A stretch of 64,000 nucleotides of DNA. Source: Candidatus Palauibacter sp. (GTDB taxonomy: Bacteria; Gemmatimonadota; Gemmatimonadetes; Palauibacterales; Palauibacteraceae). The notes under the pieces were generated by a model. The model saw only the letters and a program-made list of their open reading frames with translations. It made no database searches and had not been told where the DNA came from. The stretch covers positions 515,918-579,917 of the forward strand of contig NZ_OZ250143.1 of NCBI RefSeq assembly GCF_965237495.1. Direction: 5' to 3'. The translations under genes and the position numbers were made by a program. Positions 1 through 18,516 of the stretch are shown in pieces; position 1 is the stretch's first letter, and the number at the start of each line of letters is the position of its first letter.

Positions 1-292
1 ACCGATTGGCCCCGCGCGGGGCGAGGGCGATGACTGCTTACCTGCTCAGAACCTTTCGCTGTGGCGATCGTAAGCCATCGCTCAAGGAATTGGTCCCGGG
101 TCATACCCCGGCCATCGTCACGCAAAATGAACAGCTCAGCGCTCCGATAATAGTCGACCTCCACCCGGGTGGCGTACGCATCGTGAGCGTTCTTGAACAG
201 CTCGCTGATTGCGGTGGGGATCCCCGCGATTTGCTGTCTGCCCAGCATGTCCAGGGTTCTGGCCCGAGCCTTGAACGTCGCTTCCATGGCAG

Positions 293-1393
293 TCAGAGGA
301 GTCCGGCGTCCGCTAGGTGCTCGTTCATATGGTGGCCGAAGACGGTCGCAAGCCTGACGGGCACTGCATTCCCGATCTGGCGGGCCATCGAGCTAAGGCT
401 TCCGTCGAACTCGTAATCCATCGGGAACGTCTGCAGGCAGGCGGCTTCGCGAACGCTGATCGCGCGGTCCTGCTGGGGGTGGCCGAAGCGGCCGTTCGAG
501 TAGCTGATGCAGCGCGTCGTCAACCCCGATGCGGGGCGGTCCCAGGACATGCGGCCGTAGACATCACTGTACCCGTTGGACCGGCGGTGGCACTCAAGCC
601 GGAGACCGTCGGGCCAGTCGCGGTTACCCCCTCCCTCAGGCGTCGCGCGGATACGCCGAAGGTTGCGTTCGGAAAGCCTGGCGGCACGGTGATCCGGCAC
701 ATCTGGGTGCGTCTGCCCTGCGGCGATCTCTGGAAGTTCCTCGATCCAGTCCCGCACGGTGTCGTACTTGGGGTTGTCGGTCTCGGGGCCGTGGGACTTG
801 GGAGGCAGTTCCAGTGGCCCGTGTCGGCTCGCAAGCAACAGCAGTCTGCGACGGCTCTGTGGGACTCCGTACTTCTTGAGCGACACGGCCCCGTACGCTG
901 GCTCGCAATAGCCAGCCTCCCGGAGTCCGCGCACGAATCCGCTTAGCGGCTCGGCGTCGCGCCTTGGGTTCTGGATTCCCGGTACGTTCTCGACGAAGAC
1001 GATGTCCGGCTCGCATCGCCGAATGAACCGCAGGAACTCCAGCAGCAACGGGACCCGGTCATCCTTGTCTGGTTCGGGGCGGGATGTGTTCTGTTTGGTG
1101 AACGGCTGGCACGGCGCACATCCGCAGAACAAGACCGGCTGGGATCTCTGAGTTCGGACGAGGCCGTGGACCATATCCACGTTCGTCTCTCGGATGTCGG
1201 CGTGCTCGAAATGAGCGGACGGAAAATTCTTCTCGAAGGTGCTCTTGGCGTCGGCGTCGGCATCGAGGGCGAACACCACCTCCAACCCGGCGTTCTGGAA
1301 GCCCCGGCTGGCCCCGCCGCAACCCGAGAAGAAGTCGAATACCTTGACTCCGGGGAGGGAATCGACCTCCAAGCTCTCGCTGCATGAGTTCAT
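293..1393 (-). CDS. DNA (cytosine-5)-methyltransferase; solitary, Dcm-like
   Basis: Motif I FDFFSGCGGASRGF (FxGxG AdoMet site), PC catalytic motif GCAPCQPFT, ENVPG motif IV and QSRRRLLLLASR motif VIII. The ORF-track frame extends to 1654, but the conserved core begins at the internal ATG at 1393 (MNSCSES...). Confidence 0.85.
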   Translation of the reverse strand: MNSCSESLEVDSLPGVKVFDFFSGCGGASRGFQNAGLEVVFALDADADAKSTFEKNFPSAHFEHADIRETNVDMVHGLVRTQRSQPVLFCGCAPCQPFTKQNTSRPEPDKDDRVPLLLEFLRFIRRCEPDIVFVENVPGIQNPRRDAEPLSGFVRGLREAGYCEPAYGAVSLKKYGVPQSRRRLLLLASRHGPLELPPKSHGPETDNPKYDTVRDWIEELPEIAAGQTHPDVPDHRAARLSERNLRRIRATPEGGGNRDWPDGLRLECHRRSNGYSDVYGRMSWDRPASGLTTRCISYSNGRFGHPQQDRAISVREAACLQTFPMDYEFDGSLSSMARQIGNAVPVRLATVFGHHMNEHLADAGLL

Positions 1394-1599
1394 TTCGGGG
1401 TGGCATCTCCGCTGGACCGTGGCGGATTGCCGGAGATGAAAGACGCCGAGATGGGCTTGCGGTCGAACTCCAACCGGAACCGCCACCAACTCCAACCCTG
1501 CCCCGAACTTCCCCTGCCCGAACCCGCCGTTGCCTCGCACCGTGACGGTAAGTCCGCCCGCACGCGGGGTCAACCGGAACTCCGAATCGCGGTCGCTGG

Positions 1600-3321
1600 T
1601 TGGCGGATTGCCTTGCGGGGCGTTCTGCGGCAAACTCCGTGCCATGCAACGCAACGTATGGAGCCCAGCGAGTTCCTGTCGTTCGATTCCGCCGGACCGG
1701 GCGCGGTAGACTGGTGCGTACGCCGTTCCACATCCGGTGGGCGCCAGCGAACGCCCCGGAGGAGGGTTCCCCGCCGCCGCCGGAGCAGGCCCGGTTCCAG
1801 GAGCTCCTGCGCGAGTTGTTCCAGTTCGACTGCGCGGATCTGGATTTCGGCATCTACCGGGTCATGAACCACAAGCGGGAGGTCATCGACCGCTACATCG
1901 ATCGGGAGCTGCCGGGCGCCATCGAGGAAGCCGTGAGCCAGGGGGGGCTCGAGACCGAGGCGAGGCGCGCCGACACCTTCGAGGAAACGCGAGCCAGCGT
2001 GATCGAGGTCTTCGGGGAAGATGTGCTCGCACCCGACGGAACGCTACTCCAGTATGAGGAGACCCCGCTCGGACAGAAGTACATGCTGTGGCGTGCGCGG
2101 GCCCGCCACTCCGAGTCCGCCGGGGACGTGCGGCGCGACATCTACAACCACCTGTACGCCTTCTTCAGCCGGTACTACCAGGACGGCGATTTCGTTCCGA
2201 AGCGGCGCTACTCGTGGGAGCACCCCTACGTCGTCCCCTACAAGGGCGAGGAAGTTCATTTCCACTGGGCCAACCGCGACCAGTACTACGTGAAGGCGGC
2301 GGAGCACTTCAAGGATTACACCTACCGGACTCCATCGGGAATCTCCGTCCGCTTCTTCCTGCGCTCAGCGCACGTCGAGCGGGACGACGTTAAGGGCAAG
2401 AAACGGCTCTTTTTCCCCCTGCCGAACGCTGCGGTCTGGGACGGGGATCGCCGATTGCTGGACCTGCCGTTCGATTATCGCCCGCTGACTTCGGCCGAGG
2501 CGAAGCACTTCGGAAGGAAGGGACAGCAGGAAGCCATTCTGGAGCGCGCCGAAGCGACCGTTGCCGACGCGCTCGCCGCGATGCCGGAGGCGGCGCTGGC
2601 GCTGCTCGACAAGACAGCGGTGAGTGAAGACGACGCCGCGCCGACCCTGTTCGCGCACCACGCACAGCGATTTGCTCGAAAGGTTACGTCGGACTACTTC
2701 ATTCACCGTGATCTGAAGGCGTTCCTCGGCCGGGAGCTGGACTACTATCTCAAGTCGGAGGTTCTGGGTCTCGGCACGCTCGAAGCTGGGGGCGAGACGA
2801 GGGCCGACGCCTGGCTGGACAAGATGCGCGTTATCCGCGAGGTGGGCGGAAACATCATCGACTTCCTCGCTCAGATCGAAGGCTTCCAGAAGATGCTCTG
2901 GGAGAAGCGGAAGTTCGTCGTGGCCGTGCAGTACTGCGTGGCCGTCCGACTGCTTCCCGAGGAGCTTCGGTCCCGCGTCCTGGAGTGCGACGCGCAATGG
3001 GACGAGTGGTGCTCCCTGGGCTGCATCGTGGACGACGACTCCCTGTTCGCAGCGGGTGAAGATCCGATTGCCCGCGGCGACTTCTTGGAACGCAATCCGG
3101 GGATTCTCCTCGACACCCGACACTTCGACTTGGCATTTGTTGACGATCTGCTGGTGGCGCTCGACGACATCGACGAGAAGACGGACGGCGTGGTCGTAAA
3201 GAGCGAGAACTGGCAGGCGCTGGATCTGCTGGAGGAGCGGTACGGGGGACAAGTTGATTGCATTTACATTGACCCACCGTACAACACGGGCAACGATGGC
3301 TTCATCTATAAGGACCAATAC
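1600..3321 (+). pseudogene. mod: Type III-like N6/N4 DNA methyltransferase (mod), N-terminal fragment; interrupted by IS3-family insertion after ...DPPYNTGNDGFIYKDQY
   Basis: A beta-class MTase motif IV, CIYIDPPYNTGNDGF, lies at the very 3' end of the fragment. The reading frame runs into the IS inverted repeat and reaches a stop at 3349-3351. It resumes in-frame at 4660, and the YQHSSWASM segment there matches the region after DPPY in Type III Mod proteins. An N-terminal extension of ~450 aa before DPPY has no recognisable family. The true start is uncertain; 1600 is the first ATG. Confidence 0.75.
3318..3321. repeat. Target-site duplication ATAC (left copy) of IS3-family element; right copy at 4656-4659
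   Basis: Identical 4-mers directly abut both IS termini. Confidence 0.7.
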
Positions 3322-3439
3322 TGGAGCTGTCCCGCTTTCACGGACGGTTAGTTTCTGTGGTTGATCGTCTCCGGTGTTGCTCCTTTCAGTCCCTCTCAGG
3401 CGCTCGGGAGAGGTTCCGGGTGTACGCCTCCGGTGCGCC

Positions 3440-4288
3440 TCAGGCCGCATGGTTCCTCTCGTAGTTGGCCGGCGACTCGTAGCCGAGGGCGGAGTGAAGC
3501 CTGCGCGTGTTGTAGAAGCCTTCGATGAAGCCGAAGACCTCTCGCCGTGCCTCGGCCGCGGTGCGGAACGAGCGCCGCCAGATCAGCTCGCACTCCAGCG
3601 TCGCGAAGAAGCTCTCGCACATGGCGTTGTCGTAGGCGTCGCCCACCGAGCCCATGGACCGCGCGATGCCCGACGCGCGGCAGCGCTCCCCGAAGGCGAG
3701 CGAGGTGTACTGCGAGCCTCGATCCGAGTGATGAACGACGCGCCCTTCGGGGCGGCGCCGCGCGAGGGCCATCGCCAGCGCGGCCTCGACCAGCTCGGTC
3801 CGCATGTGCGTCGCCATGGCCCAGCCGACGACGCGGCGGCTCCAGACATCGAGCACGACGGCCAGATACAGCCAACCCGCCCATGTGGGCACGTACGTGA
3901 TGTCGGCCACCCACAGCCGGTCGGGCCCCGAGGCCGAGAAGTCCCGCCTCACCAGGTCCGGCGCGGGCCGGGCCTCGGTGTCCATCTTCGTCGTCGCCGT
4001 CTTGAAGCGCCTCCTGGTCGCGCCCTCGATCCCCATCGCCCTCATCAGCCGCCCCACGCGCTTCTGGCCCACCCGCTCGCCCTCGGCCCTGAGAACCGCG
4101 TGGATCCGCGGACGACCGTACGTCTCGCCGCTGCCGGTCCAGATGGCCTGGATCTTGTCTTGAAGTTCGTCGTCCCGCCGCGCCCGCGCCGAGGCAGGAC
4201 GCTTCAGCCAGGCGTAGTAGCCGCTGGGGGAGAGACCCAGCACCCGGCACATGGCCGCCAGAGGAAACTCGGCCCGGTGCGCCTTCAT
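3440..4288 (-). CDS. IS3-family transposase OrfB (DDE integrase core)
   Basis: Integrase-core motifs LWVADITYV, HSDRGSQYTS and NAMCESFFATLECE. It sits in the -1 frame relative to orfA, and that frame stays open upstream of the first Met. Confidence 0.9.
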   Translation of the reverse strand: MKAHRAEFPLAAMCRVLGLSPSGYYAWLKRPASARARRDDELQDKIQAIWTGSGETYGRPRIHAVLRAEGERVGQKRVGRLMRAMGIEGATRRRFKTATTKMDTEARPAPDLVRRDFSASGPDRLWVADITYVPTWAGWLYLAVVLDVWSRRVVGWAMATHMRTELVEAALAMALARRRPEGRVVHHSDRGSQYTSLAFGERCRASGIARSMGSVGDAYDNAMCESFFATLECELIWRRSFRTAAEARREVFGFIEGFYNTRRLHSALGYESPANYERNHAA

Positions 4289-4599
4289 GAACGCGTACCC
4301 CCGCCGGGGATCGCTCCGCTCTCCCTCGCGAACCAGGCCGCGGCTCTTTTTAGGATGTCACGCTCCATCCGGAGCCGCTTGTTCTCCCGCTTCAGACGCG
4401 ACATCTCCTTCCCCGTCTCCGTCGTCAGACCGTCTCTCCGCTCTCCCTCGTCCAGCTCCCCCTGTCTGACCCAGTTGCGGATCGTCTGCTCCGAGGGCTC
4501 GAACTCCCGCGCCAGCGACCCCGCGCTACGACCGGCACGCGCGAGTTCCACCAGCCGCTCGCGGTACTCCGGCGGATACCGCCCCGCTCTTCCCGCCAC
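4285..4599 (-). CDS. IS3-family transposase OrfA (HTH plus leucine zipper)
   Basis: YPPEYRERLVELARAG...SLAREFEPSEQTIRNWVRQ HTH followed by an LKRENKRLRMERDILKRAAAWF zipper. A GTG start at 4599 is preceded by AGGAGG with a 6-nt spacer. The ORF-track start at 4725 lies outside the IS. A CTAAAAAGAG (A AAA G) slippery run sits near 4345-4353. Confidence 0.8.
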   Translation of the reverse strand: MAGRAGRYPPEYRERLVELARAGRSAGSLAREFEPSEQTIRNWVRQGELDEGERRDGLTTETGKEMSRLKRENKRLRMERDILKRAAAWFARESGAIPGGGTRS

Positions 4600-4659
4600 G
4601 ATACACCTCCTTGGTTCCCCAATGGAAAGGTGTCCGTGAAAGCGGGGCAACTCCAATAC

Positions 4660-6225
4660 CAGCACTCGAGCTGGGCGTCGATGGTCAGCCAGGCGGTCAA
4701 CCGTTCCGTGGCTTACGGTTCGCATCGCTCCGCCATCTTCGCGTCGATCGACGAGGGAGAACAGCCGATCTTTCGTTTTCTCCTCGATGCCAGTTGGGGT
4801 TCACACAATCATGTGGCGGACATGGTGTGGGCCTCGGGCCGCAAGAACGACTCGCGGCTCATCTCGGTATCGCACGAATACATCTTGGTGTACGCCCGTG
4901 ATCGCGAATCCCTCCGTACTCATGGGATCCGTTGGCGACAGCGGAAACCCGGCCTCGACGACATCTACGCCTGCCACAAGAGGCTAAAGCGGCGGCACGG
5001 TGACGACTACGCTGCGATCGAGCGTGACCTGAAGGAGTGGTTCCGCAGCCTACCGGGCTCCCATCCGGCCCGAAGGCAGAAACACTACAACCGCGTGGAC
5101 GCACGCGGCGTTTATTTCCCCGACAACATTTCGTGGCCGGGGACCGGCGGTCCGCGGTACGACGTGATCCATCCCGTGACGGAAAAGCCGACAAAGGTGC
5201 CAGCGGCAGGGTGGCGACTCAAAGAGGAAACGATGAAGCGGTGGATTGCGGAGGATCGGATCCATTTCGGCGAGGATGAACACAGCGTGCCCAAACGGAA
5301 GTCGTATCTGCGCGAGCACGAGCACGAGGTACCGTATAGCGTGTTCTACCAGGATGGCCGCGCCGCCACGAAGCGGCTACGTGCCGTGTTGGGTACGGAC
5401 GACGTGAGCTACCCGAAGGACGAGACCGTCATAGCGGAGTGCATTGAAATGGCGGCGGGCGCGGGAAGCACGATTCTCGACTACTTCGCCGGATCTGGTA
5501 CGACCGGCCATGCCGCGATCAACCTCAATCGTGAGGACGGGGGACGACGCAAGTTCATTCTGGTGGAGATGGGACACCGGTTCGACACCGAGATCATGCC
5601 GCGGCTCAAGAAGGTGGCGTTCTCCCCGGAGTGGCGGAACGGGGCCGCGAAGCGGGAGGCCACGGCGGAGGAGTCCGAGCGCGGCCCGCGGATCATCAAG
5701 TACTTCCGTCTGGAGAGCTACGAGGACGCGCTGAACAACATCGAGTTCGAGGAGGTGGAGGAGAGCCTGTTCGAGCTGGAGGACTACCTGCTGCGCTACA
5801 TGCTCCAGTGGGAGACCAAGGCGAGCGCGACCCTGCTCAACGTCGCGGCGTTCGCGCGGCCGTTCGACTACAAGCTGCGGCTGGGCGGGAACGGTGATGG
5901 CGCGGACGAGACCGTGGATCTCGCCGAGACGTTCAACTACCTGCTCGGCCTAAAGGTGCATGCGCGCCGGACATACGACGACGACGGGCGCCGCTATCTG
6001 GTCTACGCGGGGGAGACGTGGGACGGCAGCTCTGCGGTTATCATCTGGCGCGACACGGAGGGATGGACGGCGGAGGACCGGGAGCGGGACCGGGATTTCG
6101 TGGCGAGGCACGACATGACGGCGGGTGCCGACGAGATCTGGATGAACGGGGACTCCATGGTAAAGGACGCGCGGCCGCTGGACGCGCTATTCAAACAGCG
6201 CATGTTCGCGTCCGCAGACGGCTGA
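4660..6225 (+). pseudogene. mod: Type III-like DNA methyltransferase (mod), C-terminal fragment with AdoMet motif I
   Basis: YQHSSWASMV follows the DPPY motif once the IS is excised. Motif I is TILDYFAGSGTTGHAAINL. The stop TGA at 6223-6225 overlaps the res ATG. Confidence 0.75.
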
Positions 6226-9200
6226 TGACCCCCGGCCGCCCCGGCACCATGCTCCGCCGCCTCGAGGCGGAACTCCTGCTGTTGGGCTGGGCGAACCGGC
6301 AGTTCGGGTTCGAGACCAACCAAGCGCTCTTTGACGCCTTGAAGGATGCTCACGAGGGGTACGAGGACGGCCGCAGCCATGTCGCGCGCATGCTTCTGAG
6401 CCGGGAGCGCCTGATGGTTCCCGCGGACGACCTGGCCCGCTACGACGACAACGTGCGCCGCCATCTCGACTCCATAAACAAGGGACGGCGCGAGCCCATC
6501 ACCCTGCGGTATTTCCAGCAACTCGCGGCGCTGTACGCGGAACTCTTCTTGGCCCGGCGCGCTGCGTCCCCCGAAGCCCTCGCACGGCAGCTCCACCGGT
6601 ACGTCCGGGAGAAGGTCCACGGCCTGGGCACCTCCTACCCGGTGCGGGAGATCACTCCGGACGACCTGAACAAGCTCGCGTTCTGGATGGCGACGGGGAG
6701 CGGCAAGACGCTCATCATGCACCTCAACTACCTCCAGTTCCTGCACTACGGCGGGGCGGAGGGCCTGGACAACATCATCCTCATCACGCCCAACGAGGGG
6801 CTGAGCGCCCAGCACATGGAGGAAATGACCACGTCCGGCATCCCGTCGGCGCGTCTCGGCGAGGCCGGGCTGCTGGCGGGCGGCCGCTGCACCGTGCGGG
6901 TGACCGAGATCACCAAGCTTGTCGACAAGCGCCGCGGAAAGGGGACGGGTGTCAGCATCGAGGTCGAGGCGTTCGGCGACCGCAACCTCGTGTTCGTGGA
7001 CGAGGGCCACCGGGGCGCGAGCGGGGAGGCGTGGCGAGCGGTGCGCGACGCCGTGGCCGCGCGCGGCTTCACCTTCGAGTACAGCGCCACCTTCGGGCAG
7101 GCGCTGGCGGCGGCGCGCGACAACCAACTCACCCTCGACTACGGCAAGTCGATCCTCTTCGACTATTCGTACCCGTATTTTCACCGGGACGGGTTCGGCA
7201 AGGACTTCCGCGTCCTCAACGTGTCCGGCAAGGACCCGCCGCCAGAGCTGGCCGACCACCTCCTTTTCGGCAACCTCCTCTCCTTCTACGAGCAGCTCCG
7301 CGCCTATCGCGAGAACGCCGCCGAGCTGCGCGCCTACAATCTGGAGCAGCCGCTGTGGGTGTTCGTCGGCAAGAGTGTGAACGCGGTCTATAGACGTCGC
7401 GGGCGTGACACGAGCGACGTGCTCGCCGTGCAACTCTTCCTCCACCGCGTGCTCAACGAGCCCGACTGGGCGCGGGAGACGATCGGGAAGCTGCTGCGCG
7501 GCGAGTCGGGGCTGTACGCGGCGTGGAACGTGGACCTGTTTGCGGACCGCTTCAACGAGTTGGCGAAGCTCGGGGAGTCCCCGGATCGGATCTACGCCGA
7601 CATCCTCCGCACCGTGTTCCACGCCGATGGCCCCGGCGGGCTGCGCCTGTGCGACATCCGGGGCGCGCCCGGCGAACTCGGCCTCAAGGCGTCCGGGTCG
7701 GACGACTACTTCGGCCTCACCTACATCGGAGACACGGCGAAGTTCAAGCGGCTGGCACGGGAGGCAGAGGCGGGGATCATCTTCGAGGAGGACGCGGTCG
7801 GCGGCTCGATGTTCGGCCGGGTCAACGAGGCCGGGGCCACGGTCAACGTCCTCATCGGCGCCAAGAAGTTCGTCGAGGGCTGGAACTCATGGCGCGTGTC
7901 GAACATGGGCCTCATGAAGGTGGGACAGGCGGAGGGCTCCGAGATCATCCAGCTCTTCGGCCGCGGCGTGCGGCTCAAGGGCAGGGGGATGTCCCTCAAG
8001 CGGAGCACCTATCTGGAGGGTCCGCACCCGGACAAGGTGGGGCTCCTGGAGACGCTCAACATCTTCGCCGTGCGCGCCGACTACATGAAGAAGTTCCGGA
8101 CCTATCTGGAGCGCGAGGGACTCGAGGCGCGGGACAGCGTGACGCTGCGCGTGCCAGTCCGGGCCAACGAGGAGTTCCTGGGCCGGGGGCTCGTGGTTCC
8201 GGCCCTCCCGGAAGGAACCGACTTCGAGACGGAGGCGAACTTCGCGCTCGGTGCCGGCGCCGGGCTTCCGGTGCAGATCGACCGCGCCACGCGGGCCTCC
8301 TCGTGGGAGAGCGGTGCCCGCGGTCAGTCGGCGACGGAGGGAACGGCCGGGCACAGCCGTCCCGCCTCGGAGCTGCCGCTGGCGCTGGTGGATTGGGAAA
8401 GGGCGTACCTCGACCTCATGGAACACCGGCGGCAGAAGGGGATGCGGCCGCTGGCCGTCCCCGGGCCCGACGCGCTTCGGTCGCTCGTCGAGAGCGGGGC
8501 CGCCACGGTGTCGGCCGACGAGCATGTGTTCGAGCCCCGCAACTGGCACGACCGGGAGGACCTGCAAGCGATCGTGCACGCGGTGCTCCGGCGAACCGCG
8601 GACCGGTGCTGGCAGACCGAGCGGCGGACGTGGGAGGCCGAGCGCATGAAGTACCGCGAGGTGGACGCCGCCGATCCCAACCTTCTGCTGAACGTCGACC
8701 CCGAGGCGGCCAGCGCCTGGCCCGGCGGCCCCCAGCCTCACTATGTGGTTAGCGTCCCGCACGCCGACGCCGGTCTTCGCAACGAGCTCGTGGAACTCAT
8801 CGAACAGCGGGGCAAGCTCTACGAGCAGGAACTCGGCCCGCTCGCCCGCATCCACTTCGACCGCCACCTGTACCAGCCGCTGCTGATCGAGTCCTCGAAC
8901 GCCGACGTGAGGATCTCCCCGCCGCCGCTCAACGAGAGCGAAAAGCGGTTCGTCCGCGATCTCCGCGATTGGTGGGTGGACCGGGGCAGCGCCCTTCACC
9001 CCGGTGCGGAACTGTTTCTGCTCCGAAACCAGGGCCGGGGCTGCGGCGTGGGCTTCTCACTCGAGGGCCGCGGCTTCTACCCGGATTTCATCCTGTGGCT
9101 CATCGAGGGAGGCCACCAACGCGTCGTGTTCGTCGAACCGCACGGCATGCTCCACGCCCGCGCCTACGCCGAGGACGAAAAGGCCCGCCTACACGAGCGC

Positions 9201-9413
9201 CTATCCGCCCTCTCCGACGCTATCGCCGAGCGCAGCGGCGTCCCTGCGGGCACCGTGTCTCTCGACGCCTTCATCGTGTCCGCCACCCCCCACGCCGAAC
9301 TCCGCCCCCACTACGACGACGGCTCCTGGAGCCCCGAGGACTTCGCCAGCAAGAACATCCTCTTCCCGGACCCACGCCGCCGCTACATGGAGACCCTCCT
9401 CGCCCGTCCATAG
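6225..9413 (+). CDS. res: Type III-like restriction subunit (res): SF2 helicase domain plus C-terminal nuclease-like domain
   Basis: Walker A AFWMATGSGKTLIM, motif II LVFVDEGHRGAS and motif VI QLFGRGVRLKG. C-terminal YPDFILWL...VVFVEPHG block. ATG at 6225 overlaps the mod stop, which implies translational coupling. The ORF-track start at 6018 would overlap mod and is probably a spurious upstream extension. Confidence 0.75.
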   Translation: MTPGRPGTMLRRLEAELLLLGWANRQFGFETNQALFDALKDAHEGYEDGRSHVARMLLSRERLMVPADDLARYDDNVRRHLDSINKGRREPITLRYFQQLAALYAELFLARRAASPEALARQLHRYVREKVHGLGTSYPVREITPDDLNKLAFWMATGSGKTLIMHLNYLQFLHYGGAEGLDNIILITPNEGLSAQHMEEMTTSGIPSARLGEAGLLAGGRCTVRVTEITKLVDKRRGKGTGVSIEVEAFGDRNLVFVDEGHRGASGEAWRAVRDAVAARGFTFEYSATFGQALAAARDNQLTLDYGKSILFDYSYPYFHRDGFGKDFRVLNVSGKDPPPELADHLLFGNLLSFYEQLRAYRENAAELRAYNLEQPLWVFVGKSVNAVYRRRGRDTSDVLAVQLFLHRVLNEPDWARETIGKLLRGESGLYAAWNVDLFADRFNELAKLGESPDRIYADILRTVFHADGPGGLRLCDIRGAPGELGLKASGSDDYFGLTYIGDTAKFKRLAREAEAGIIFEEDAVGGSMFGRVNEAGATVNVLIGAKKFVEGWNSWRVSNMGLMKVGQAEGSEIIQLFGRGVRLKGRGMSLKRSTYLEGPHPDKVGLLETLNIFAVRADYMKKFRTYLEREGLEARDSVTLRVPVRANEEFLGRGLVVPALPEGTDFETEANFALGAGAGLPVQIDRATRASSWESGARGQSATEGTAGHSRPASELPLALVDWERAYLDLMEHRRQKGMRPLAVPGPDALRSLVESGAATVSADEHVFEPRNWHDREDLQAIVHAVLRRTADRCWQTERRTWEAERMKYREVDAADPNLLLNVDPEAASAWPGGPQPHYVVSVPHADAGLRNELVELIEQRGKLYEQELGPLARIHFDRHLYQPLLIESSNADVRISPPPLNESEKRFVRDLRDWWVDRGSALHPGAELFLLRNQGRGCGVGFSLEGRGFYPDFILWLIEGGHQRVVFVEPHGMLHARAYAEDEKARLHERLSALSDAIAERSGVPAGTVSLDAFIVSATPHAELRPHYDDGSWSPEDFASKNILFPDPRRRYMETLLARP

Positions 9414-9454
9414 TTCGGCCCGGCACGGCGCATGGCGGCGCTCAAGGCATCCCG

Positions 9455-9877
9455 TCACGAGATTCGCCAGAGCCGCAAAGTCGAGATGGCCCCGGCTCTC
9501 GCGGTGCGACGTACATATCGTTCGTCCGCCGTGACGAACACGCCCTCGAGCCCGAGCGCCGCGGAATGGTACGCCGCGTCGTAGAATGCGACTCCGTACG
9601 TCACACACAGAGACACGGCACGGCTTCTCCAGTGGGAGTCCAGCCGCGCCTCGGTAAGGCCGAAGTCGGCCAGCGATGCCAGAAGCTCGCCAGCATCATC
9701 GGGAAACCGCCTCGCCAGCGTGTTGCCCACCTCGTAGATCCAGAGCTGTGGAACGACCAGATCAAGGGTCCCGGCCACCGCTTCGTCACGCAACGCGAGC
9801 GCCGCGTCTGTATCCTGCTCGTCGTCGCCCGGAAGAACCCACTTGAGAAGAACCGACGCGTCGGGCGTTACGATCAC
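9455..9877 (-). CDS. vapC: PIN-domain toxin (VapC-like)
   Basis: PIN signature VIVTPDASVLL...DTDAALAL...VVPQLWIYEVGN...FYDAAYHSAA...VFVTADERY. GTG start at 9877 forms a GTGA overlap with the antitoxin stop. Confidence 0.7.
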   Translation of the reverse strand: MIVTPDASVLLKWVLPGDDEQDTDAALALRDEAVAGTLDLVVPQLWIYEVGNTLARRFPDDAGELLASLADFGLTEARLDSHWRSRAVSLCVTYGVAFYDAAYHSAALGLEGVFVTADERYVRRTARAGAISTLRLWRIS

Positions 9878-10107
9878 GGCAGCCGTTGCTCCCGCTCTTC
9901 CCGTATCCACCGGACGATCTGGTCGGTCTCGACTGCGGGCAACCGCGCGCGCAGTGCGTCCATCCGGGCGGAGGCGTCTCGCCTCCTGGAAGCACGCGAC
10001 CACTCCCGGATCGCGGCGTTGACGGCGCGGCTGCGCGTACCGCGCGGCAGCCTCTCGATGACCCGCCACGAGTCATCGTCCAGCATGATGTTGACCCTTC
10101 GCGCCAT
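9874..10107 (-). CDS. vapB: Ribbon-helix-helix (CopG-like) antitoxin
   Basis: MARRVNIMLDDDSWRVIERLPRGTRSRAVNAAIREW RHH fold. Located immediately upstream of the PIN gene with a 4-nt overlap. Confidence 0.65.
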   Translation of the reverse strand: MARRVNIMLDDDSWRVIERLPRGTRSRAVNAAIREWSRASRRRDASARMDALRARLPAVETDQIVRWIREEREQRLP

Positions 10108-10212
10108 GTCGTTCTCCTCCCAGTGTCCCTGCGGTGTGTAATGGTTACACACCGCAGAGCCCTTGGCAAGCCACGGTGCGGATCCCTCGCTACCTGGCCT
10201 TCGTCGGGAAGC

Positions 10213-12078
10213 TCAGGCCTCGCGGGCGGCGGCGGCCGCGCGGCGCATCGCCTTCTTCCGCTCGTTCGGGTCCAGGAGGCGCTTGCGGAGGCGGATGGCG
10301 TCGGGTGTGACCTCGATCAGCTCGTCGTCGTTGATGAACTCGAGCGCCAGTTCCAGCGTCAGTACGCGCGGCGGTTCCAGGCGGACGTGCTCATCCGCGG
10401 CGGCGGCGCGCATGTTCGTGAGCTTCTTGCCCTTCGACACGTTGACCTCGAGGTCGCCCGGGCGGACGTGCTCCCCCACGAGCATCCCGCTGTAGACTTC
10501 GACGCCCGGCCCGATCAGCATCTCGGCCCGCTCCTGCAGATTGAAGAGGGCGAAGGCCACCGACGTCCCGGGGCGGTCGGCGACGAGCACCCCCTTCCGC
10601 CGGTGTTCGAGATGGCCGGCACGGGGTCCGTACTCGAGGAACCGGTGGTGCAGCTGGCCCTCGCCGCGCGTATCGGTGAGGAACTCGGAGCGGTATCCGA
10701 ACAGGCCCCGCGAAGGGAGTTTGAAGTCGAGCCGAACGGGCCCCTGGTCCGTCGGCCGCATCGACAGGAGTTCCGCACGCCGGCTCCCCATCTTCTCCAT
10801 CACCACGCCGACCATCTGAGCGGGGACTTCGATCACGGCCTCCTCGTACGGTTCGAGGATCTCGCCGCCGGGACCCTGGCGCAGGATGACGCGGGGGCGC
10901 GAGACGGAGAACTCGTATCCCTCGCGCCGTATCGTCTCCATGAGGATGGTGAGGTGCAGTTCCCCGCGGCCCGAAACGGCGAAGGTGTCGGGCGATTCCG
11001 TGGGCTCGACGCGGAGGGCGACATTCCGCTCCAGTTCGCGGAAGAGGCGCTCGCGGAGCTGTCGGGTGGTGACGTACTTCCCCGTCCGACCGGCGAACGG
11101 CGCGTCGTTGACCCGGAAGTCGACCGCCAGGGTGGGCCGCTCGACCGCGATCCCCCGCAGCCGCTCCCGGTGGTCCGGGTCGGCCACCGTCTGGCCGATT
11201 TCCACCCCCTCGAGTCCCGCCAGCGCCACGATCTCTCCGGCGCTCGCGCGCGGCTTCTCGATCCGTTTCAGCCCCTCGAAGCCGTAGATCCGAACTACGC
11301 GGGACGGGATCGCCTCGTCGGCCGCGACCGGCCCCGGCTCTCCGAGCGGAAGCAGAACGACGCGATCCCCCTCGGCGACCGCGCCCCGCTCGATGCGGCC
11401 GATGGCGATGCGGCCGACGTAGGCGGAGTGATCCAGCGTCGAAGCCAGCATCTGGAACGGTCCCGCGGCATCGCCCGTGGGAGGAGGGACCGCCGAGACG
11501 ATCGTCTCGAACAGCGGCTCCAGATCTCCGCCGCGCGCCTCGATGTCCCGCGCCGCCCACCCCTCACGTCCGCTCGCGTACAGGAAGGGCGCGTCGAGCT
11601 GGGCCTCGGTGGCCTCCAGCTCCATAAACAGCTCCAGCACGTCGTCGTGCACCTCCGCCGCGCGCTGCTCGGGCCGGTCGACCTTGTTGATCACGCCGAT
11701 GGGCGCGAGCCCGAGTGCGAGCGCCTTCCGCGTCACGAAACGCGTCTGCGGCATGGGGCCCTCGACCGCGTCCACCAGCAGGAGCACCCCGTCCACCATC
11801 CGCAGGATGCGCTCGACCTCGCCCCCGAAATCCGCGTGGCCCGGCGTGTCGACGATGTTGATGCGGGTCTCGCCCCAGCGCACCGCCGTGTTCTTGGACA
11901 GGATCGTGATCCCGCGCTCCCGCTCTAGCGGGTTGGAATCCATGACGCGGTCCTCCATCCGCTCGTGCGACTGGAAGGCGCCCGCCTGCCGCAGCATGTG
12001 ATCGACGAGCGTCGTCTTTCCGTGATCGACGTGGGCGATGATCGCGATGTTACGGATGTCCCGTCTCTGGGGCGTCAA
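10213..12078 (-). CDS. typA: Translational GTPase TypA/BipA
   Basis: IRNIAIIAHVDHGKTTLVD G1 motif, DTPGHADF and NKVDRP, with EF-G-like domains. Length is 621 aa. Confidence 0.95.
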   Translation of the reverse strand: MTPQRRDIRNIAIIAHVDHGKTTLVDHMLRQAGAFQSHERMEDRVMDSNPLERERGITILSKNTAVRWGETRINIVDTPGHADFGGEVERILRMVDGVLLLVDAVEGPMPQTRFVTRKALALGLAPIGVINKVDRPEQRAAEVHDDVLELFMELEATEAQLDAPFLYASGREGWAARDIEARGGDLEPLFETIVSAVPPPTGDAAGPFQMLASTLDHSAYVGRIAIGRIERGAVAEGDRVVLLPLGEPGPVAADEAIPSRVVRIYGFEGLKRIEKPRASAGEIVALAGLEGVEIGQTVADPDHRERLRGIAVERPTLAVDFRVNDAPFAGRTGKYVTTRQLRERLFRELERNVALRVEPTESPDTFAVSGRGELHLTILMETIRREGYEFSVSRPRVILRQGPGGEILEPYEEAVIEVPAQMVGVVMEKMGSRRAELLSMRPTDQGPVRLDFKLPSRGLFGYRSEFLTDTRGEGQLHHRFLEYGPRAGHLEHRRKGVLVADRPGTSVAFALFNLQERAEMLIGPGVEVYSGMLVGEHVRPGDLEVNVSKGKKLTNMRAAAADEHVRLEPPRVLTLELALEFINDDELIEVTPDAIRLRKRLLDPNERKKAMRRAAAAAREA

Positions 12079-12292
12079 ACGGGCCTCGATCTCCTCGTGG
12101 TCCTGCTCGTGGTCCTGCTCGCGGTCGTCGTGGGGCAGGGGATCCTACGCCGCCGGCTCCGAACCACAAAGCCGGGCCGGGGGAAGGGCCGCGCCTGCTG
12201 TGCGTGGCTGCGTGGGGTTTGCTAGGTTACCCCGGCACCATGGTGCGGCTGGCGGGTATGAAACTTGGTCTTACGGTCCTCGCGTTCCACGC

Positions 12293-12937
12293 ATGGAGAA
12301 TACGCTGGCTTTCATGAAGCTGAAGACCCGCACGACGCTCCTCACCGCCGCCCTGCTCGCCGCCGGCTGCGCGGACACGACGCGGCCCGAAGCCGTGTAC
12401 ATGGGCACGCTCAACGTCGTCGTGGCGGACGATGGCGTCGGGGCTCCGGGCTCCTTCGAAGGACGGCTGAGCGCGGACTTCCGGGTCTCGATCTCCCGGG
12501 ACGGGAGCGACTGGGTCCACCTGGGCGTGCCGACGCAGGTCGATCTCGCACTCCAGGACGCCGGGGGAGCCCTCAACCTGCACCCGCCCATCGACGTTCC
12601 CGCGGGAACGTATCCGTACCTGAGAATCGTCGGCGGCTGGGGCCTGGCGCGCATCGAGGGCGGTGCGGAGGTCGGGGGTCGCAGCTTCCCCGATCCCGTG
12701 CACCTGCGGGTCGGGGAGGAACGGCTCGCGATCGAGACCCGCCTGCCGATGGCGATCTTCGTCGCGCCGGGAGGGCACATGACGCTCCGGATCGACCTCA
12801 ACAGCGAGGCGTGGGTCTCGCCGGAGAATCTCGAGGCGGGCCGCGTTCCGCAGACCGATGTCGAGACCGCCCTCACCGGCCGAGCGCACGACAGGTTGCC
12901 GGCGCTCGGCGCCCCGCCTCCGAACCGACAGGCGTAG
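12293..12937 (+). CDS. Hypothetical lipoprotein
   Basis: MENTLAFMKLKTRTTLLTAALLAAGC signal peptide with lipobox. The ORF-track start at 12038 is an upstream extension. Confidence 0.55.
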   Translation: MENTLAFMKLKTRTTLLTAALLAAGCADTTRPEAVYMGTLNVVVADDGVGAPGSFEGRLSADFRVSISRDGSDWVHLGVPTQVDLALQDAGGALNLHPPIDVPAGTYPYLRIVGGWGLARIEGGAEVGGRSFPDPVHLRVGEERLAIETRLPMAIFVAPGGHMTLRIDLNSEAWVSPENLEAGRVPQTDVETALTGRAHDRLPALGAPPPNRQA

Positions 12938-12941
12938 CCGC

Positions 12942-13493
12942 TTGTCGCGACTGGTGGCGGTAGCCGGACTGGCGATCGCCTTCGTGTGGGTCTCGCTCTG
13001 GCTCCGCTTCCGGGAGGTGACGCCCGCACCGCCCCCGGAGCCGGCGGATCTCCGCGTTTGGGACTATGTCGGCTGTCACCGGCTCCAGTTCGACAGCTGG
13101 GTCGCGGACGAGGACGGCGAAGCGCCCGACGGCGAGCCCCCGGTGGTGCGATCCCTCATGCTGTTCGCCGACTCGGTGGACGAGTACGGGAGGGAGATGA
13201 ACGCCTACCGCGCCGTGCCGCTGGAAGCCGACCTGGACCGCTCGCGACTGGAGACGCGCTGGTTCACCCGGGCCGACACCCTGTGGCTCGTGTGGTCGAG
13301 CCCCGAAGTGCGGGGCGCGGTAGCGCTGCGGGCGGCCCGCGGGGGGATGGCCGGACGGGCGGTGGCGCGGCTGCGGGGGCCAGCGGTCGGCACGAACGCG
13401 GCGGGCGGCGGCTCGGTGCAGGCTCCGGTCTCGGCCTGGGAAGTGAACTGCCACTCGCTCCGCCCCGACCGGATCGGCCCCGTCGAGCGCTAA
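12942..13493 (+). CDS. Hypothetical membrane-anchored protein
   Basis: The ORF opens right after the preceding stop, with TTG 12942 or GTG 12954 as candidate starts. One N-terminal TM segment, LVAVAGLAIAFVWVSLW. No recognisable domain. Confidence 0.35.
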   Translation: MSRLVAVAGLAIAFVWVSLWLRFREVTPAPPPEPADLRVWDYVGCHRLQFDSWVADEDGEAPDGEPPVVRSLMLFADSVDEYGREMNAYRAVPLEADLDRSRLETRWFTRADTLWLVWSSPEVRGAVALRAARGGMAGRAVARLRGPAVGTNAAGGGSVQAPVSAWEVNCHSLRPDRIGPVER

Positions 13494-13535
13494 GAGCGAT
13501 GACGGGCGAGCATCCGCTGGCGAGGCATGACACTG

Positions 13536-14897
13536 TCAAGCTGCGCATTCTCGGTCGCTTTCCGGGTTGGCCACCCGCAGGGACGGCCGCCAGAAACGCA
13601 ACGTGGGGAATCCAAAGGCGTCCGTCTCGTACGAAAACAACAGGCCGCCGTCCACCGCCCCGAAGCCATCCGTGAAGTTCGCGGCCGCAAGGATGCGACC
13701 CGCGCCGGGATCCAACACCTCGATACGCTGCTCGTAGAGCGAGCAATTCTCGCGGCGCGTGTACTCTCCCGCCTCGGGGTGCAATCCCGGCGGGGTCTCC
13801 ACAAGGCAGTCCGCCCAGTTGGCCGCCGCCACCGAGATCATTACCCACAGCCGATCTCGGGAATCGCTCGTCATGTATCTGATCCCCGGCGAGCCGGGCT
13901 GGTCGGGGTGCAACTCCCTGCGCGGGGAGTTCGGCGGGAACCATTCGACCTCCCGGACCAGCGAGCGCAGGCGCGTCCCCGCCGCCGCGTCCCACAGATC
14001 GATCCGGTATTCCTCCGGCGACACCGACCAGACCTCGCCGCTGCGGGCGGCGGGCGTGATCGATCGAAAGGGTGACGGGGCGCCGGGCACCCCGACCGGC
14101 ACCTCGTCGAACGAGCGGACCACGTCACCCTCACCATTCATGAGGTGGAGGACGTACCCCACCCGGTCCGCGGCGTACATCGTGGCGTTGATCACATACG
14201 AGGAATCGTCGAGAACGACGGCGTCGTTCTCGAGTGTACCCGGCGAAAGGGGGTTCGTGTGCAACACCTCGAAGTCCGTCGCATCCAGCACGGTTCGGCG
14301 CCTGTTCAAGGCGTCAAAGACGTGCAGGCGGTCTCCGTGGGCGCGCACCCACCGAATCCACCGGTACTCGCCCGGCCCCTCGCCACCTCGTCCCACCCAG
14401 CGGCCGCCGGGGACATCCGCGGAGGCCACCAAGAAACGCTCGGGCCGTAGTTGCTCCGTGATCGCGAGGCGCCCGCCGGGCAGAGCCTCCACGTCGTAGG
14501 CGTTGGACACCCAGTTCTCGTCGTCCCACCCGCCGCCCCTGAACACCGGGCCGGGCTCCAGCTCGATCTCGCACGGCGGCTGCGGATCCTCCCGCAGCAC
14601 CGTGGGCTGCTGGGCCTGCACCGCCCGGGACGTAGCCACCAGAAGCGCGACGGCCAATAGCGTTCGGCAAGCGGCCTCAACGGCCGTCTGGGAGCGGCCG
14701 TGCAGGGCTACATGTCCCGGCGGCGAGGGGAGCGCGGACGACGCTCCGCGGGGGCCTTCACGGCGCAAGGTGTGAACCGGCACCGGCGGCGACCGCAGCG
14801 AGGAATTCCGGAGTGGCGAGGTGCCGGAGCGGAATGTGGACGGCAACGGTTCCCTGGGTGCATCCCCGAACTTGGATGGCCATGCGTTCGGTCGCAA
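13536..14897 (-). CDS. Secreted beta-propeller-like protein; start uncertain
   Basis: Signal-peptide-like LLAVALLVATSRAVQAQQ. Repetitive W/G-rich blades over 453 aa. The first ATG at 14897 would overlap the upstream gene by 140 nt, so an internal non-ATG start near 14650-14710 is likely. Confidence 0.5.
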   Translation of the reverse strand: MRPNAWPSKFGDAPREPLPSTFRSGTSPLRNSSLRSPPVPVHTLRREGPRGASSALPSPPGHVALHGRSQTAVEAACRTLLAVALLVATSRAVQAQQPTVLREDPQPPCEIELEPGPVFRGGGWDDENWVSNAYDVEALPGGRLAITEQLRPERFLVASADVPGGRWVGRGGEGPGEYRWIRWVRAHGDRLHVFDALNRRRTVLDATDFEVLHTNPLSPGTLENDAVVLDDSSYVINATMYAADRVGYVLHLMNGEGDVVRSFDEVPVGVPGAPSPFRSITPAARSGEVWSVSPEEYRIDLWDAAAGTRLRSLVREVEWFPPNSPRRELHPDQPGSPGIRYMTSDSRDRLWVMISVAAANWADCLVETPPGLHPEAGEYTRRENCSLYEQRIEVLDPGAGRILAAANFTDGFGAVDGGLLFSYETDAFGFPTLRFWRPSLRVANPESDRECAA

Positions 14898-15306
14898 AGT
14901 AAAACGGCGACTTCTCGGGCTGGCCGCGGATGATTCGGTACACCTCCAAGGCGTCGCCGGCCGACACCGCCGCCAAGACTGTCTTCAGCACACCTGCGTC
15001 GTACAGGATCCCGTCGATGCCGCCGCCCCGGCACCCGGGGGGGTGCTTCTCCGTGCAGCCCTTCGGGTATGGAACGCGCGGGTGTACTCCGTCTTTCCGC
15101 TTGTAGTACCCGTCGTTGTGGACAGGAGTCACTGCGGTATGGCACTCAGACAGATCATCGGGGTCTGGATTGCAATAGAAGGTGAGACAGTCCACACAGG
15201 AATCTTCGTCCTGCGCCGCCACCGGTTTGGGATCGACCGCCCCCGCCAACAGGACGGCTCCGACAAGCAGGAACGTGAAGTGATGAAGGGATTTGAGGTT
15301 AAACAC
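14758..15306 (-). CDS. Secreted Cys-rich hypothetical protein
   Basis: Signal peptide MFNLKSLHHFTFLLVGAVLLAGAV. Cys cluster DSCVDCLTFYCNPDPDDLSECH. GTG start at 15306 with a GGGAGG SD 5 nt upstream. Confidence 0.5.
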   Translation of the reverse strand: MFNLKSLHHFTFLLVGAVLLAGAVDPKPVAAQDEDSCVDCLTFYCNPDPDDLSECHTAVTPVHNDGYYKRKDGVHPRVPYPKGCTEKHPPGCRGGGIDGILYDAGVLKTVLAAVSAGDALEVYRIIRGQPEKSPFYFATERMAIQVRGCTQGTVAVHIPLRHLATPEFLAAVAAGAGSHLAP

Positions 15307-16112: not shown

Positions 16113-17237
16113 TCAGCCGGTCGAGGTCCCGTCGGTCGCGTCGGGTTCGAGGCGCGAACGCTCCCCCTCGATGAAGCTCTCGGCGCTTTCCGGGACGAAC
16201 AGGTTGTCGGCGATGCGGGCGATCTCCTCCGCCTCCCGCCACCGGGCCTCGAGTTCCTTGAGTTCTCCCTCGAGCGCCTCGCGCTCGGCCTGCTCGTGCG
16301 TAGCCATCTCGATCGCCAGCCGCACATCCACCTTGAGGCCCGCCAGCGTCCCGGGCAGGGGTTTCGAGAGTGCCTCGATTTTCTTTGCCGAGAGGCCTGG
16401 CCGCCGGCGCCCGGAGAAGTCGCGCTGCGCGAGATCGGCAGCTTGTGGGAGAAACGCCTCGGGGTGGCCGGCCTCCTCGATTCGGGCCACCGCCGCGCGG
16501 ACCGTCTTGCGCCCGCCACCGCTCCGGTTCGCGTGTGCCATGAGTTGCCCGGCCAGGCCGATGGCCTCGCTGCCGTGAACGATCATCGTATGTCGCCGGT
16601 CCTTCTGCTTACGTGTCCTCAGCGACTTGTCCCAGCCCGGGATGTGATCGACGCTGAGATCCCATCCCGAGGCGTCGGCGCTCGGGACCAGGCGTGACGT
16701 GTAGAGGTGTTTTCGCTGGATCCGGATCGGGTCTTCGACCTCGTTCCTGAGACGGAGGATCACGCGATCTTGATACCACTGCTGGATCAGGCTCGGGATG
16801 CTCGAGAAGGCCGCAATCAGCGAGAAGCCCGTCACCATGCTCCCGGCGACAAAGGCCCCGGTCGCGGTCGCGCCCGCGCCGGTGATGAGCATGGCCCGGC
16901 GGCGTCGGCGGCCGAACTGGTCGCCGTAGCGCCATGCCGCGAACTCCTGGCGGACAGGGTCTCCCACGCGTACGAGTTCGAGCCCCTCTTTCAGCTTGGC
17001 GAGCCCGATGTTGTCCGTGGCGACCCGCATGCGGGTCGTCTCGAAGGCGCGCTCGCAGGCCTCGATCGCCTCCCACCGTGTCTCCAGCGGCGAGAGGTTC
17101 CAGCGCTCGCAGCGCCGGCAGACGACCCAGAGCCGTCCCTTGGCTCCGTCGAAGGCGAGGCGGTGCCCGACCGGGAACTCCTCGATGGCCTCGTTCCGGT
17201 CGAGGTCACCGTGGCAGAAGATGCAGGTCGTGTACAC
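16113..17237 (-). CDS. Zinc-ribbon membrane protein of unknown function (paralog 2 of tandem pair)
   Basis: N-terminal CIFCHG...CRRCERW 4-Cys ribbon, one TM segment and a C-terminal coiled coil, EREALEGELKELEARWREAEEIARIADN. GTG start lies immediately after the stop of paralog 1 (TGAGTG). Confidence 0.6.
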   Translation of the reverse strand: MYTTCIFCHGDLDRNEAIEEFPVGHRLAFDGAKGRLWVVCRRCERWNLSPLETRWEAIEACERAFETTRMRVATDNIGLAKLKEGLELVRVGDPVRQEFAAWRYGDQFGRRRRRAMLITGAGATATGAFVAGSMVTGFSLIAAFSSIPSLIQQWYQDRVILRLRNEVEDPIRIQRKHLYTSRLVPSADASGWDLSVDHIPGWDKSLRTRKQKDRRHTMIVHGSEAIGLAGQLMAHANRSGGGRKTVRAAVARIEEAGHPEAFLPQAADLAQRDFSGRRRPGLSAKKIEALSKPLPGTLAGLKVDVRLAIEMATHEQAEREALEGELKELEARWREAEEIARIADNLFVPESAESFIEGERSRLEPDATDGTSTG

Positions 17238-18329
17238 TCAGACGTTCCGCGACGGGTTCATGGGGTCGACGTCGATGCGCTCGTGCTCGCCGGCGATGAA
17301 GCCGTCAACGCTCTCGGGGACGAGCAGGTTGTCGGCGATGCGTGCGATCTCCTCGGCTTCGCGCCACCGCGCTTCGAGTTCCTTGAGTTCTCCCTCGAGG
17401 GCCTCTCGCTCGGCCTCCTCGTGCGTCGCCATTTCGATCGCCAACCGCGTGCTCTCGCTCATGCCCGCAAGCGTACCGGGCAGAGGTTTCCGCATCCGTT
17501 CGATTTTTCTTGCGGGCGGGTGGTCCTTGGCGGATCGCTGGAAGGCATGCAACGCCATGTCCGCCGCTTCGGGAAGAAACCCCTCGGGGTGGCCAGCGTG
17601 TTCGATCCGGCTCACCGCCCTGCGGATCGCGCTCTCCCTGCCCCCGCGACGGTTGGCTTGTGCCATCAACTGACCCGCGAGCCCGATCGCCTCGCGTCCG
17701 TGGATGATCATCGTCTCCCGCTTGTCCCCCCCGCTCCAGCCCGGAAGGTGATCGACGCGCAGCCCCCATCCACCGCCCTCGCGATCGGGCACGAGACGAG
17801 AGGTGTAAAGGTGTTTCCGGAGGACCCGAACCGGCGCTCCACCCTGATTCCGAGTCCGGAGGACAACGCGCTTGAGGTACCAGGTCTTCGTCAGCCTGGT
17901 CGTCAACCAGAGTGAGCCCAGGGAGAGTACGCCTCCCACAACGAGAGCCCCCGCGGCCGTCGCGGCCGCGCCGGTGATGAGCATGGCCCGCTTGCGGCGC
18001 CGACCGAACTGGTCTCCGTAGCGCCACGCGGCGAACTCCTGCCGGACGGGGTCGCCGACGCGCACGAGTTCGAGGCCCTCCTTGAGCTTCGCGAGGCCGA
18101 TGTTGTCGGAGGCGACCCGCATGCGGGTGGTCTCGAAGGCGCGTTCGCAGGCCTCGATCGCTTCCCACCGCGTCTCCAGCGGCGAGAGGTTCCAGCGCTC
18201 GCAGCGCCGACACACGACCCAGAGGCGTCCCCGCGAGCCGTCGAATGCGAGGCGGCGACCGACCGGGAACTCCTCGATGGCCTCGTTCCGGTAGAGGTCG
18301 CCGTGGCAGAAGATGCACGTCGTATACAT
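17238..18329 (-). CDS. Zinc-ribbon membrane protein of unknown function (paralog 1 of tandem pair)
   Basis: Same architecture as 16113-17237 and ~70% identical by eye. ATG at 18329 (MYTTCIFCHGDL). Confidence 0.6.
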   Translation of the reverse strand: MYTTCIFCHGDLYRNEAIEEFPVGRRLAFDGSRGRLWVVCRRCERWNLSPLETRWEAIEACERAFETTRMRVASDNIGLAKLKEGLELVRVGDPVRQEFAAWRYGDQFGRRRKRAMLITGAAATAAGALVVGGVLSLGSLWLTTRLTKTWYLKRVVLRTRNQGGAPVRVLRKHLYTSRLVPDREGGGWGLRVDHLPGWSGGDKRETMIIHGREAIGLAGQLMAQANRRGGRESAIRRAVSRIEHAGHPEGFLPEAADMALHAFQRSAKDHPPARKIERMRKPLPGTLAGMSESTRLAIEMATHEEAEREALEGELKELEARWREAEEIARIADNLLVPESVDGFIAGEHERIDVDPMNPSRNV

Positions 18330-18516
18330 TCGTCTCTCGATCCTCACCGCTGGACGCGTCGGCTGCGTAGCCGACGGCCCCCGCGTCGCCGTCCAATGTC
18401 GCTACGTGGCCCGGCCGGGGATACCCGCCACGGGCGTCACTTCATCGTCCGGCCCCGCAGTGATGGCCGCTCGGCTGTCTTCCCTCCGGCTGCGGGTTTC
18501 ATATGCAGAGTTGCGA

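Follow-up and report, generated by a model that had tools for sequence, protein, structure and literature searches.

We analysed a stretch of 64,000 nucleotides from Candidatus Palauibacter sp. (contig NZ_OZ250143.1, positions 515,918 to 579,917; called the window below, with positions counted from its first letter), which is chromosomal DNA with a GC content of 68.8%. Our analysis indicates that positions 1714-9413 very probably hold a two-gene restriction-modification (R-M) cassette of the Type III family, in which the methylase gene mod was broken by the precise insertion of an IS3-family insertion sequence (IS) and the system was silenced. Leaving the IS aside, mod (1714-6225) and the restriction gene res (6225-9413) are adjacent and co-oriented, with mod upstream. 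The element parts the N-terminal domain and the catalytic DPPY motif of Mod from its target recognition domain (TRD), its S-adenosylmethionine (AdoMet)-binding motif and its C-terminal domain, and, lying antisense, its 1.3 kb now separate the mod promoter region from the remaining operon.

The interrupted mod gene

By deleting positions 3322-4659 in silico, we linked ...IYKDQY with QHSSW... in frame, and the joined sequence (1600-3321 plus 4660-6225; 3,288 nt) contained one stop codon, the terminal one. As stated in the original prediction, which was made from the DNA letters alone, the IS sits exactly between ...KDQY and QHSSW..., that is right after Tyr536 of Mod (codon 536/537) and 13 residues past DPPY, and is flanked by two copies of a 4-bp ATAC duplication (3318-3321 and 4656-4659). 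The same prediction held that excision restores a single open reading frame (ORF) of 1095 codons; the single frame was recovered, while the length had to be corrected. Indeed, the start is probably GTG 1714 and not TTG 1600, giving a Mod of 1,057 residues, because GC content at third codon positions (GC3) was 0.58, a non-coding-like value, at 1600-1713 compared to 0.88 from 1714 onward, GTG 1714 was also the start in the gene calls of a second assembly carrying the IS (L029), and homologues measure 1,040 to 1,060 residues.

The uninterrupted allele was present in relatives. First, the related locus L030 (Logan SRR33343631), which is 86-88% identical in nucleotides to the window on both mod flanks, reads ...AAAGATCAATACCAGCATTCGAGC... 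/ ...GATCAATACCAGCATTCG... with one ATAC. Second, the protein P0121 is an intact Mod homologue of 1,058 residues with 88% identity over its full length. Third, L032, a 4.13-Mb Palauibacter-like chromosome, carries an intact mod of 1,058 residues with the same neighbours as in the window. Thus, these three uninterrupted alleles prove the empty site.

The element itself (3322-4655, minus strand) is 1,334 bp long. Its left inverted repeat, TGGAGCTGTCCCGCTTTCACGGAC at 3322-3345, pairs with a 24-bp partner at 4632-4655 with 2 mismatches, the ends being TG...CA, and no inverted-repeat match of such quality was found in 100 shuffles. On the minus strand, orfA (4285-4599) matched HTH_Tnp_1 and orfB (3440-4288) matched NF033516, the NCBIfam model of the IS3-family transposase, at 9e-107, together with rve and HTH_21. 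An A5G slippery site, CCTAAAAAGAG, lies at 4346-4351, where a -1 shift joins frame 2 to frame 1 and hence orfA to orfB. IS3-family elements have TG...CA inverted repeats, a target duplication of 3-5 bp and a length of 1.2-1.6 kb; the present element has such repeats, duplication and length along with an orfA helix-turn-helix and an orfB DDE rve domain in 0/-1 frames. Within the family we take it to belong to the IS407 group, as its size and 4-bp duplication make probable. It is found in a single copy within the window and looks intact. The intact IS, the lack of secondary lesions across 6.4 kb of mod and res sequence, and the conserved motifs of Res suggest that the insertion is recent.

Once rejoined, Mod could be assigned with the help of its core, which matched EcoP15I Mod at 6.6e-53 as well as the Type III Mods of H. 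pylori and Mbo45V, and with 13 matching MTase_III models of PADLOC, the best being PDLC03646 (1,057 positions) at 1e-163. Motif IV (DPPY, residues 520-523) precedes motif I (FAGSGTT, 812), which is the beta-class order already predicted. Judged by its sequence, Mod is thus shown to be a DPPY-type, beta-class methyltransferase homologous to EcoP15I Mod, and its modification is presumably N6-adenine. Sequence comparison also shows how the protein is built. The 5' fragment (1714-3321, plus strand; codons 1-536) encodes an extra conserved N-terminal domain of 475 residues (approximately residues 21-495) and motif IV, whereas the 3' fragment (4660-6225, plus strand; codons 537-1057) encodes a swappable central TRD (approximately residues 560-800), motif I and a conserved C-terminal domain. 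Residues 560-800 are hypervariable among 41 homologues, with a column conservation of 0.24-0.41 compared to 0.6-0.8 elsewhere, and at the orthologous loci of L009 and L032 the mod flanks correspond to those of the window but the TRDs do not. A variable central TRD with conserved flanks is the classical Type III pattern, described for P1/P15 (PMC3874151) and for Haemophilus mod (PMC1557822).

The original prediction also described mod as unusually large. Its size is instead the standard of a very large family, covered by Type III models derived from PADLOC and REBASE. In a protein database clustered at 90%, more than 4,900 sequences matched Mod and more than 7,700 matched Res, nearly all of them 1,000 to 1,080 residues long. 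When the N-terminal 490 residues of Mod were searched against 1.84 billion representatives, at least 2,451 clusters (at 50% identity) were hit at E<=1e-3, 835 of them at E<=1e-30, and every match had this domain at its N-terminus, being either a protein of about 1,000-1,080 residues or an obvious fragment. Its conserved motifs are FQFDxxDLDFGIYRIMN, PYNGEEVHxHWANxDQYYVK, TSDFFIHKDL and FLAQIExFQKxLWEKRKF. We considered reading its GDF...GEEVH segment as a PD-(D/E)xK site and dropped the idea, the Asp being in a low-confidence loop and without support. When one genome per species was scanned, the same mod-res pair was found at 28 loci, from Gemmatimonadota, Gammaproteobacteria, Bacteroidota/Rhodothermales, Chloroflexota, Acidobacteriota and others, and mod preceded res in all related loci that retain the downstream sequence, across several phyla.

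Res and the silencing of the system

The res gene (6225-9413, plus strand) encodes 1,062 residues and is intact as predicted, being full-length with all conserved motifs. Its start overlaps the mod stop as TGATG at 6223-6227, which we could also confirm. Res matched ResIII at 7.7e-10 and the PADLOC REase_III model PDLC03654 (1,154 positions) at 7e-136, and it shares 100% identity with WP_423928027.1 of Candidatus Palauibacter sp. The superfamily 2 (SF2) helicase motifs I (GSGKT), II (DEGH) and VI (QLFGRGVR) named in the original prediction are present, as are III (SAT) and V (EGWNSW), and the C-terminal part bears YPDF...VEPHG. From its sequence, Res is shown to be an SF2 helicase-like ATPase with a C-terminal PD...ExH motif. 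This motif spans 9078-9146 of the window (Res residues 952-974) and reads YPNF in one homologue. The assignment of the cassette as Type III-like was thus borne out by its mod-res order, the TGATG overlap, the Type III Mod core, the hypervariable TRD and the REase_III match.

In a Type III system of this kind, a Mod dimer would read the site, methylate it and recruit Res, and Res would use ATP for communication between sites and for cleavage of unmethylated DNA. Work on P1/P15 established that Mod directs and stabilises Res, that Mod destruction gives an r-m- state (neither restricting nor modifying), and that only r-m- or r-m+ mutants were obtained, the r+m- state and Mod mutants dead for methylation yet still binding DNA being lethal (PMC3874151). 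In the interrupted cassette, no functional Mod would be made and Res would be left without its recognition subunit, so that the system would be r-m-, silent and harmless. The proposal that losing Mod silences the system without lethality agrees with these genetics (PMC3874151).

Several observations weigh against an ordinary Type III cassette silenced in this way. We infer its silence by analogy with P1/P15. The only other assembly with the IS (L029/L031) is from the same strain and brings no independent confirmation. The N-terminal domain of Mod had no Pfam match at E<=1 and no PDB match at E<=10. The Res motif YPDF-x15-VEPHG amounts to PD...ExH, with an invariant His compared to the Lys of Type III Res, and Res matched no solved structure, including that of EcoP15I Res, either as a single sequence or as a full-length profile. 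A profile of the Res C-terminal domain found nothing meaningful among solved structures, and the structure model of Res was poor (predicted local distance difference test score, pLDDT, of 67) with fold searches returning generic SF2 matches only. It could then be that the cassette only resembles Type III and is a distinct methylase-helicase defence, whose N-terminal domain adds an activity or a sensor and whose Res is unlike EcoP15I Res. This fits with an N-terminal domain that is highly conserved, always fused to a large Mod and devoid of Pfam or PDB relatives, and with a Res that strongly matches one PADLOC Type III REase model only, matches no solved structure and has ExH invariantly in place of ExK. 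We nevertheless judge it improbable, given that the Mod core is unambiguously that of a Type III Mod, that gene order, stop/start overlap, hypervariable TRD and Res layout (I, II, III, V, VI and a PD near the C-terminus) follow the Type III plan, and that a second Type III REase model, PDLC03651, aligns weakly (E=0.0025) but exactly on the PD...ExH region. It is conceivable, though doubtful, that the family, whose large Mod is always paired with a PD...ExH Res, forms a mechanistically distinct Type III-like branch, in which the N-terminal domain would add sensing, Res coupling or a second catalysis and the cluster of lesions would reflect a real fitness cost; the independent lesions at the typA-adjacent locus of Palauibacter relatives comprise two different IS insertions and one deletion.

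The reality of the insertion has also to be considered, since the source is a metagenome-assembled genome (MAG) and the second contig with the insertion, whose name gives a coverage of ~3.6x, is identical to the window and from the same strain. The IS might therefore be carried by only part of the population, alongside a functional mod allele, or be an assembly artefact. Both seem highly improbable to us: the junctions are identical in two separate public assemblies, and the inverted repeats there are complete and the target-site duplication is clean, which a chimeric assembly would not produce. As for a reversible or regulatory switch, or an activity kept by Res with the C-terminal Mod fragment, phase variation is classic for Type III mod genes (PMC1557822), the ORF 4630-6225 could begin at a GTG that lies within the end of the IS, and EcoP1 res is served by a promoter of its own inside mod (PMC3874151). 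However, precise excision is rare for IS3-family elements, catalytic motif IV and the entire N-terminal domain are missing from the C-terminal fragment, an r+m- state would be lethal (PMC3874151), and a sigma-70-specific promoter scan predicted no promoter-like site, which makes such retained or switchable function extremely unlikely. A Type III cassette silenced by loss of Mod thus remains our preferred reading.

The typA-adjacent locus and the C5-methylase module

Sequence comparisons place the cassette in a variable defence island beside typA, at a locus that turns over quickly. Among relatives with the locus beside typA, in L009 mod is intact but its TRD is a different one, and res is intact too, 92% identical; L027 has a different IS3-family element in mod at codon ~171 and an intact res (90%); L028 retains only the first ~229 mod codons, has lost res and shows three transposase genes around; and in L032 mod is intact, again with a TRD of another kind, and res is broken in two by a single frameshift that could be an error of long-read sequencing. 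Elsewhere, L016 has an IS4-like transposase within the TRD, and L023 and L020 have deletions. We also considered a bias of inactivation towards mod (three IS in mod, none in res) and dropped it, as truncated or frameshifted res genes occur in L001, L020, L032 and P0047-P0051 and the numbers are small, frameshifts in long-read MAGs possibly being errors. Since the lesions in relatives strike both mod and res, we claim no selection specifically against mod. Likewise, the earlier suggestion of selection against a costly defence locus is not shown, because neutral decay or IS expansion would fit lesions in both genes equally.

The pair is also interrupted or rearranged in other ways. A Fic-domain gene (HPFxDGNGR) lies between mod and res in L001 (4620-7425, with an AAA ATPase) and in L022 (14484-15500), and an MNT/HEPN-like pair occupies this place in L020 (2563-3232). 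On a Longimicrobiales chromosome (L002, 397-23012), two full res genes stand in tandem with one full and several partial copies of mod, which suggests cassette duplication or TRD shuffling.

On the other side of mod, the minus-strand gene at 293-1645 encodes, as predicted, a C5-cytosine DNA methyltransferase (C5-MTase) of 450 residues from ATG 1645 (PF00145 3e-51; TIGR00675 2e-36). An alternative start at ATG 1393 would give ~366 residues, and the L032 orthologue was called at 369. All its catalytic motifs are kept in the translation (FxGxG, PCQ, ENV, QxRxR and GNAVP). The gene is not solitary as had been proposed: it is the first of an operon with a 989-residue GHKL/HEF_HK ATPase and a 537-residue Response_reg_2 protein. 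The ATPase gene begins at 287, 5 nt past the C5-MTase stop and on the same strand, and only its first 95 codons (1-287, minus strand; HATPase_c_3 7e-9, Bergerat-fold N-box) are inside the window before it runs off the left end. In L029/L031 it is complete, with HATPase_c_3, HEF_HK and HATPase_c, and is followed by the Response_reg_2 gene (L031 11359-15928 for the continuation of both), the three genes being adjacent and co-oriented. The domain matches of the module include PF19191 at 2e-28, PF13589 at 3e-12 and PF19192 at 3e-28. Left of the Response_reg_2 gene, L031 has an IS256-family transposase gene, a gene of 387 residues and an SNF2-like helicase gene. The C-terminal ~340 residues of the Response_reg_2 protein had no Pfam match and could be an effector; PADLOC gave no system-level match for the GHKL and Response_reg_2 proteins beyond a weak REase_II similarity. 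Of the two roles first offered for the methylase, an orphan enzyme is not supported, and the fallback of a methylase protecting against a second activity comes nearer to the evidence.

On sequence grounds, this trio is a module separate from the Type III cassette. It occurs in none of L001-L028 or L030 and adjoins mod in L032, and the homology of L009, L027 and L030 to the window begins only at ~1595-1602. A 107-nt stretch at 1313-1419 is 84% identical to L030 6994-7100, in regions upstream of mod that are otherwise unrelated. It covers the alternative C5-MTase start (MNSCSE, 1393) and, in L030, the start of an unrelated gene of 1,670 residues; recombination may have joined the regions here, or a 5' region may be shared.

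The first 10 kb of the window have a GC content of ~64.5% compared to 69% for the remainder, with a lower GC3 too, as expected for an acquired island. The right border of the variable island is marked by the housekeeping gene typA/bipA (10213-12078, minus strand), in line with synteny to L009, L027, L028 and L032. Between res and typA, a VapBC-like pair (9455-10107, minus strand) is not part of the R-M system; it consists of a PIN toxin of 140 residues (9455-9877; PIN 1.4e-7) and an upstream gene of 77 residues (9874-10107), both supported by gene calls in L029. The rest of the window is housekeeping (typA, xanthine-dehydrogenase-like, RND efflux, molybdopterin oxidoreductase and aldehyde dehydrogenase genes), and no tRNA genes were found within the window. 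A second IS at ~52059-53714 (minus strand) encodes a DDE_Tnp_1/DUF772 transposase of 454 residues, IS5/IS1182-like, and has 91% nucleotide identity to a copy that lies next to typA in L032 (15946-17601). Two tandem paralogues (16113-17237 and 17238-18347, minus strand; 374 and 369 residues, ~75% nucleotide identity) had no match in a Pfam search. L029/L031 are identical to the window over positions 1-15000 and therefore come from the same strain, which is why we dropped them as independent support for the insertion; L029 departs from the window only in the tandem-paralogue stretch, with 185 differences at 15-17 kb and 0 elsewhere.

Significance and comparison with known systems

The insertion is real, yet events of this sort are ordinary, and the gene family it struck is very common and already catalogued: this is a textbook knock-out of a defence gene by a mobile element. 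Its main use lies in annotation: the halves of mod should be merged into one pseudogene, res should be named a Type III restriction subunit instead of a "DEAD/DEAH box helicase", and the C5-methylase should be assigned to its three-gene module. Moreover, the locus points to an abundant Type III-like family in which half of the methylase is without a domain model or structure and the nuclease motif is atypical. It also illustrates, in marine and sponge-associated Gemmatimonadota, rapid turnover at one locus through TRD swaps, IS hits, deletions and Fic/HEPN insertions.

The mobile element resembles the IS3 family in its orfA/orfB organisation, its A5G -1 frameshift site, its DDE rve transposase, its TG...CA repeats and its length of 1,334 bp. 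The methylase trio resembles the paraMORC-type module, for which an R-M association of C5-MTase, HEF_HK and Response_reg_2 was described computationally (Bellieny-Rabelo et al. 2021, PMC8011034), in its three domains, its adjacent co-oriented genes and the presence of other R-M genes nearby; the module here neighbours a Type III cassette without being part of it. Similarly, mod recalls the phase-variable alleles (phasevarions) of Haemophilus, Neisseria and Helicobacter, where TRD "domain movement" occurs, in that the N- and C-terminal parts are conserved while the central TRD is non-homologous between alleles (window vs L009 and L032). However, no simple-sequence repeats are present here, and inactivation came from an IS and not from slipped-strand switching.

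Compared to the prototype Type III systems EcoP15I and EcoP1I (structure 4ZCF), whose Mod has 644 residues, the Mod described here has 1,057, with the extra 475-residue N-terminal domain and the conserved C-terminal domain, and its Res does not match EcoP15I Res in sequence and carries PD...ExH in place of PD...ExK. The closest likeness is to the Type III subfamily defined by the PADLOC/REBASE-derived models MTase_III PDLC03646 and REase_III PDLC03654, to which Mod and Res gave near full-length matches (1e-163 and 7e-136, respectively). To our knowledge, no member of this subfamily has been biochemically characterised. The cassette belongs here and is of the same size class, its interruption by the IS being the only difference.

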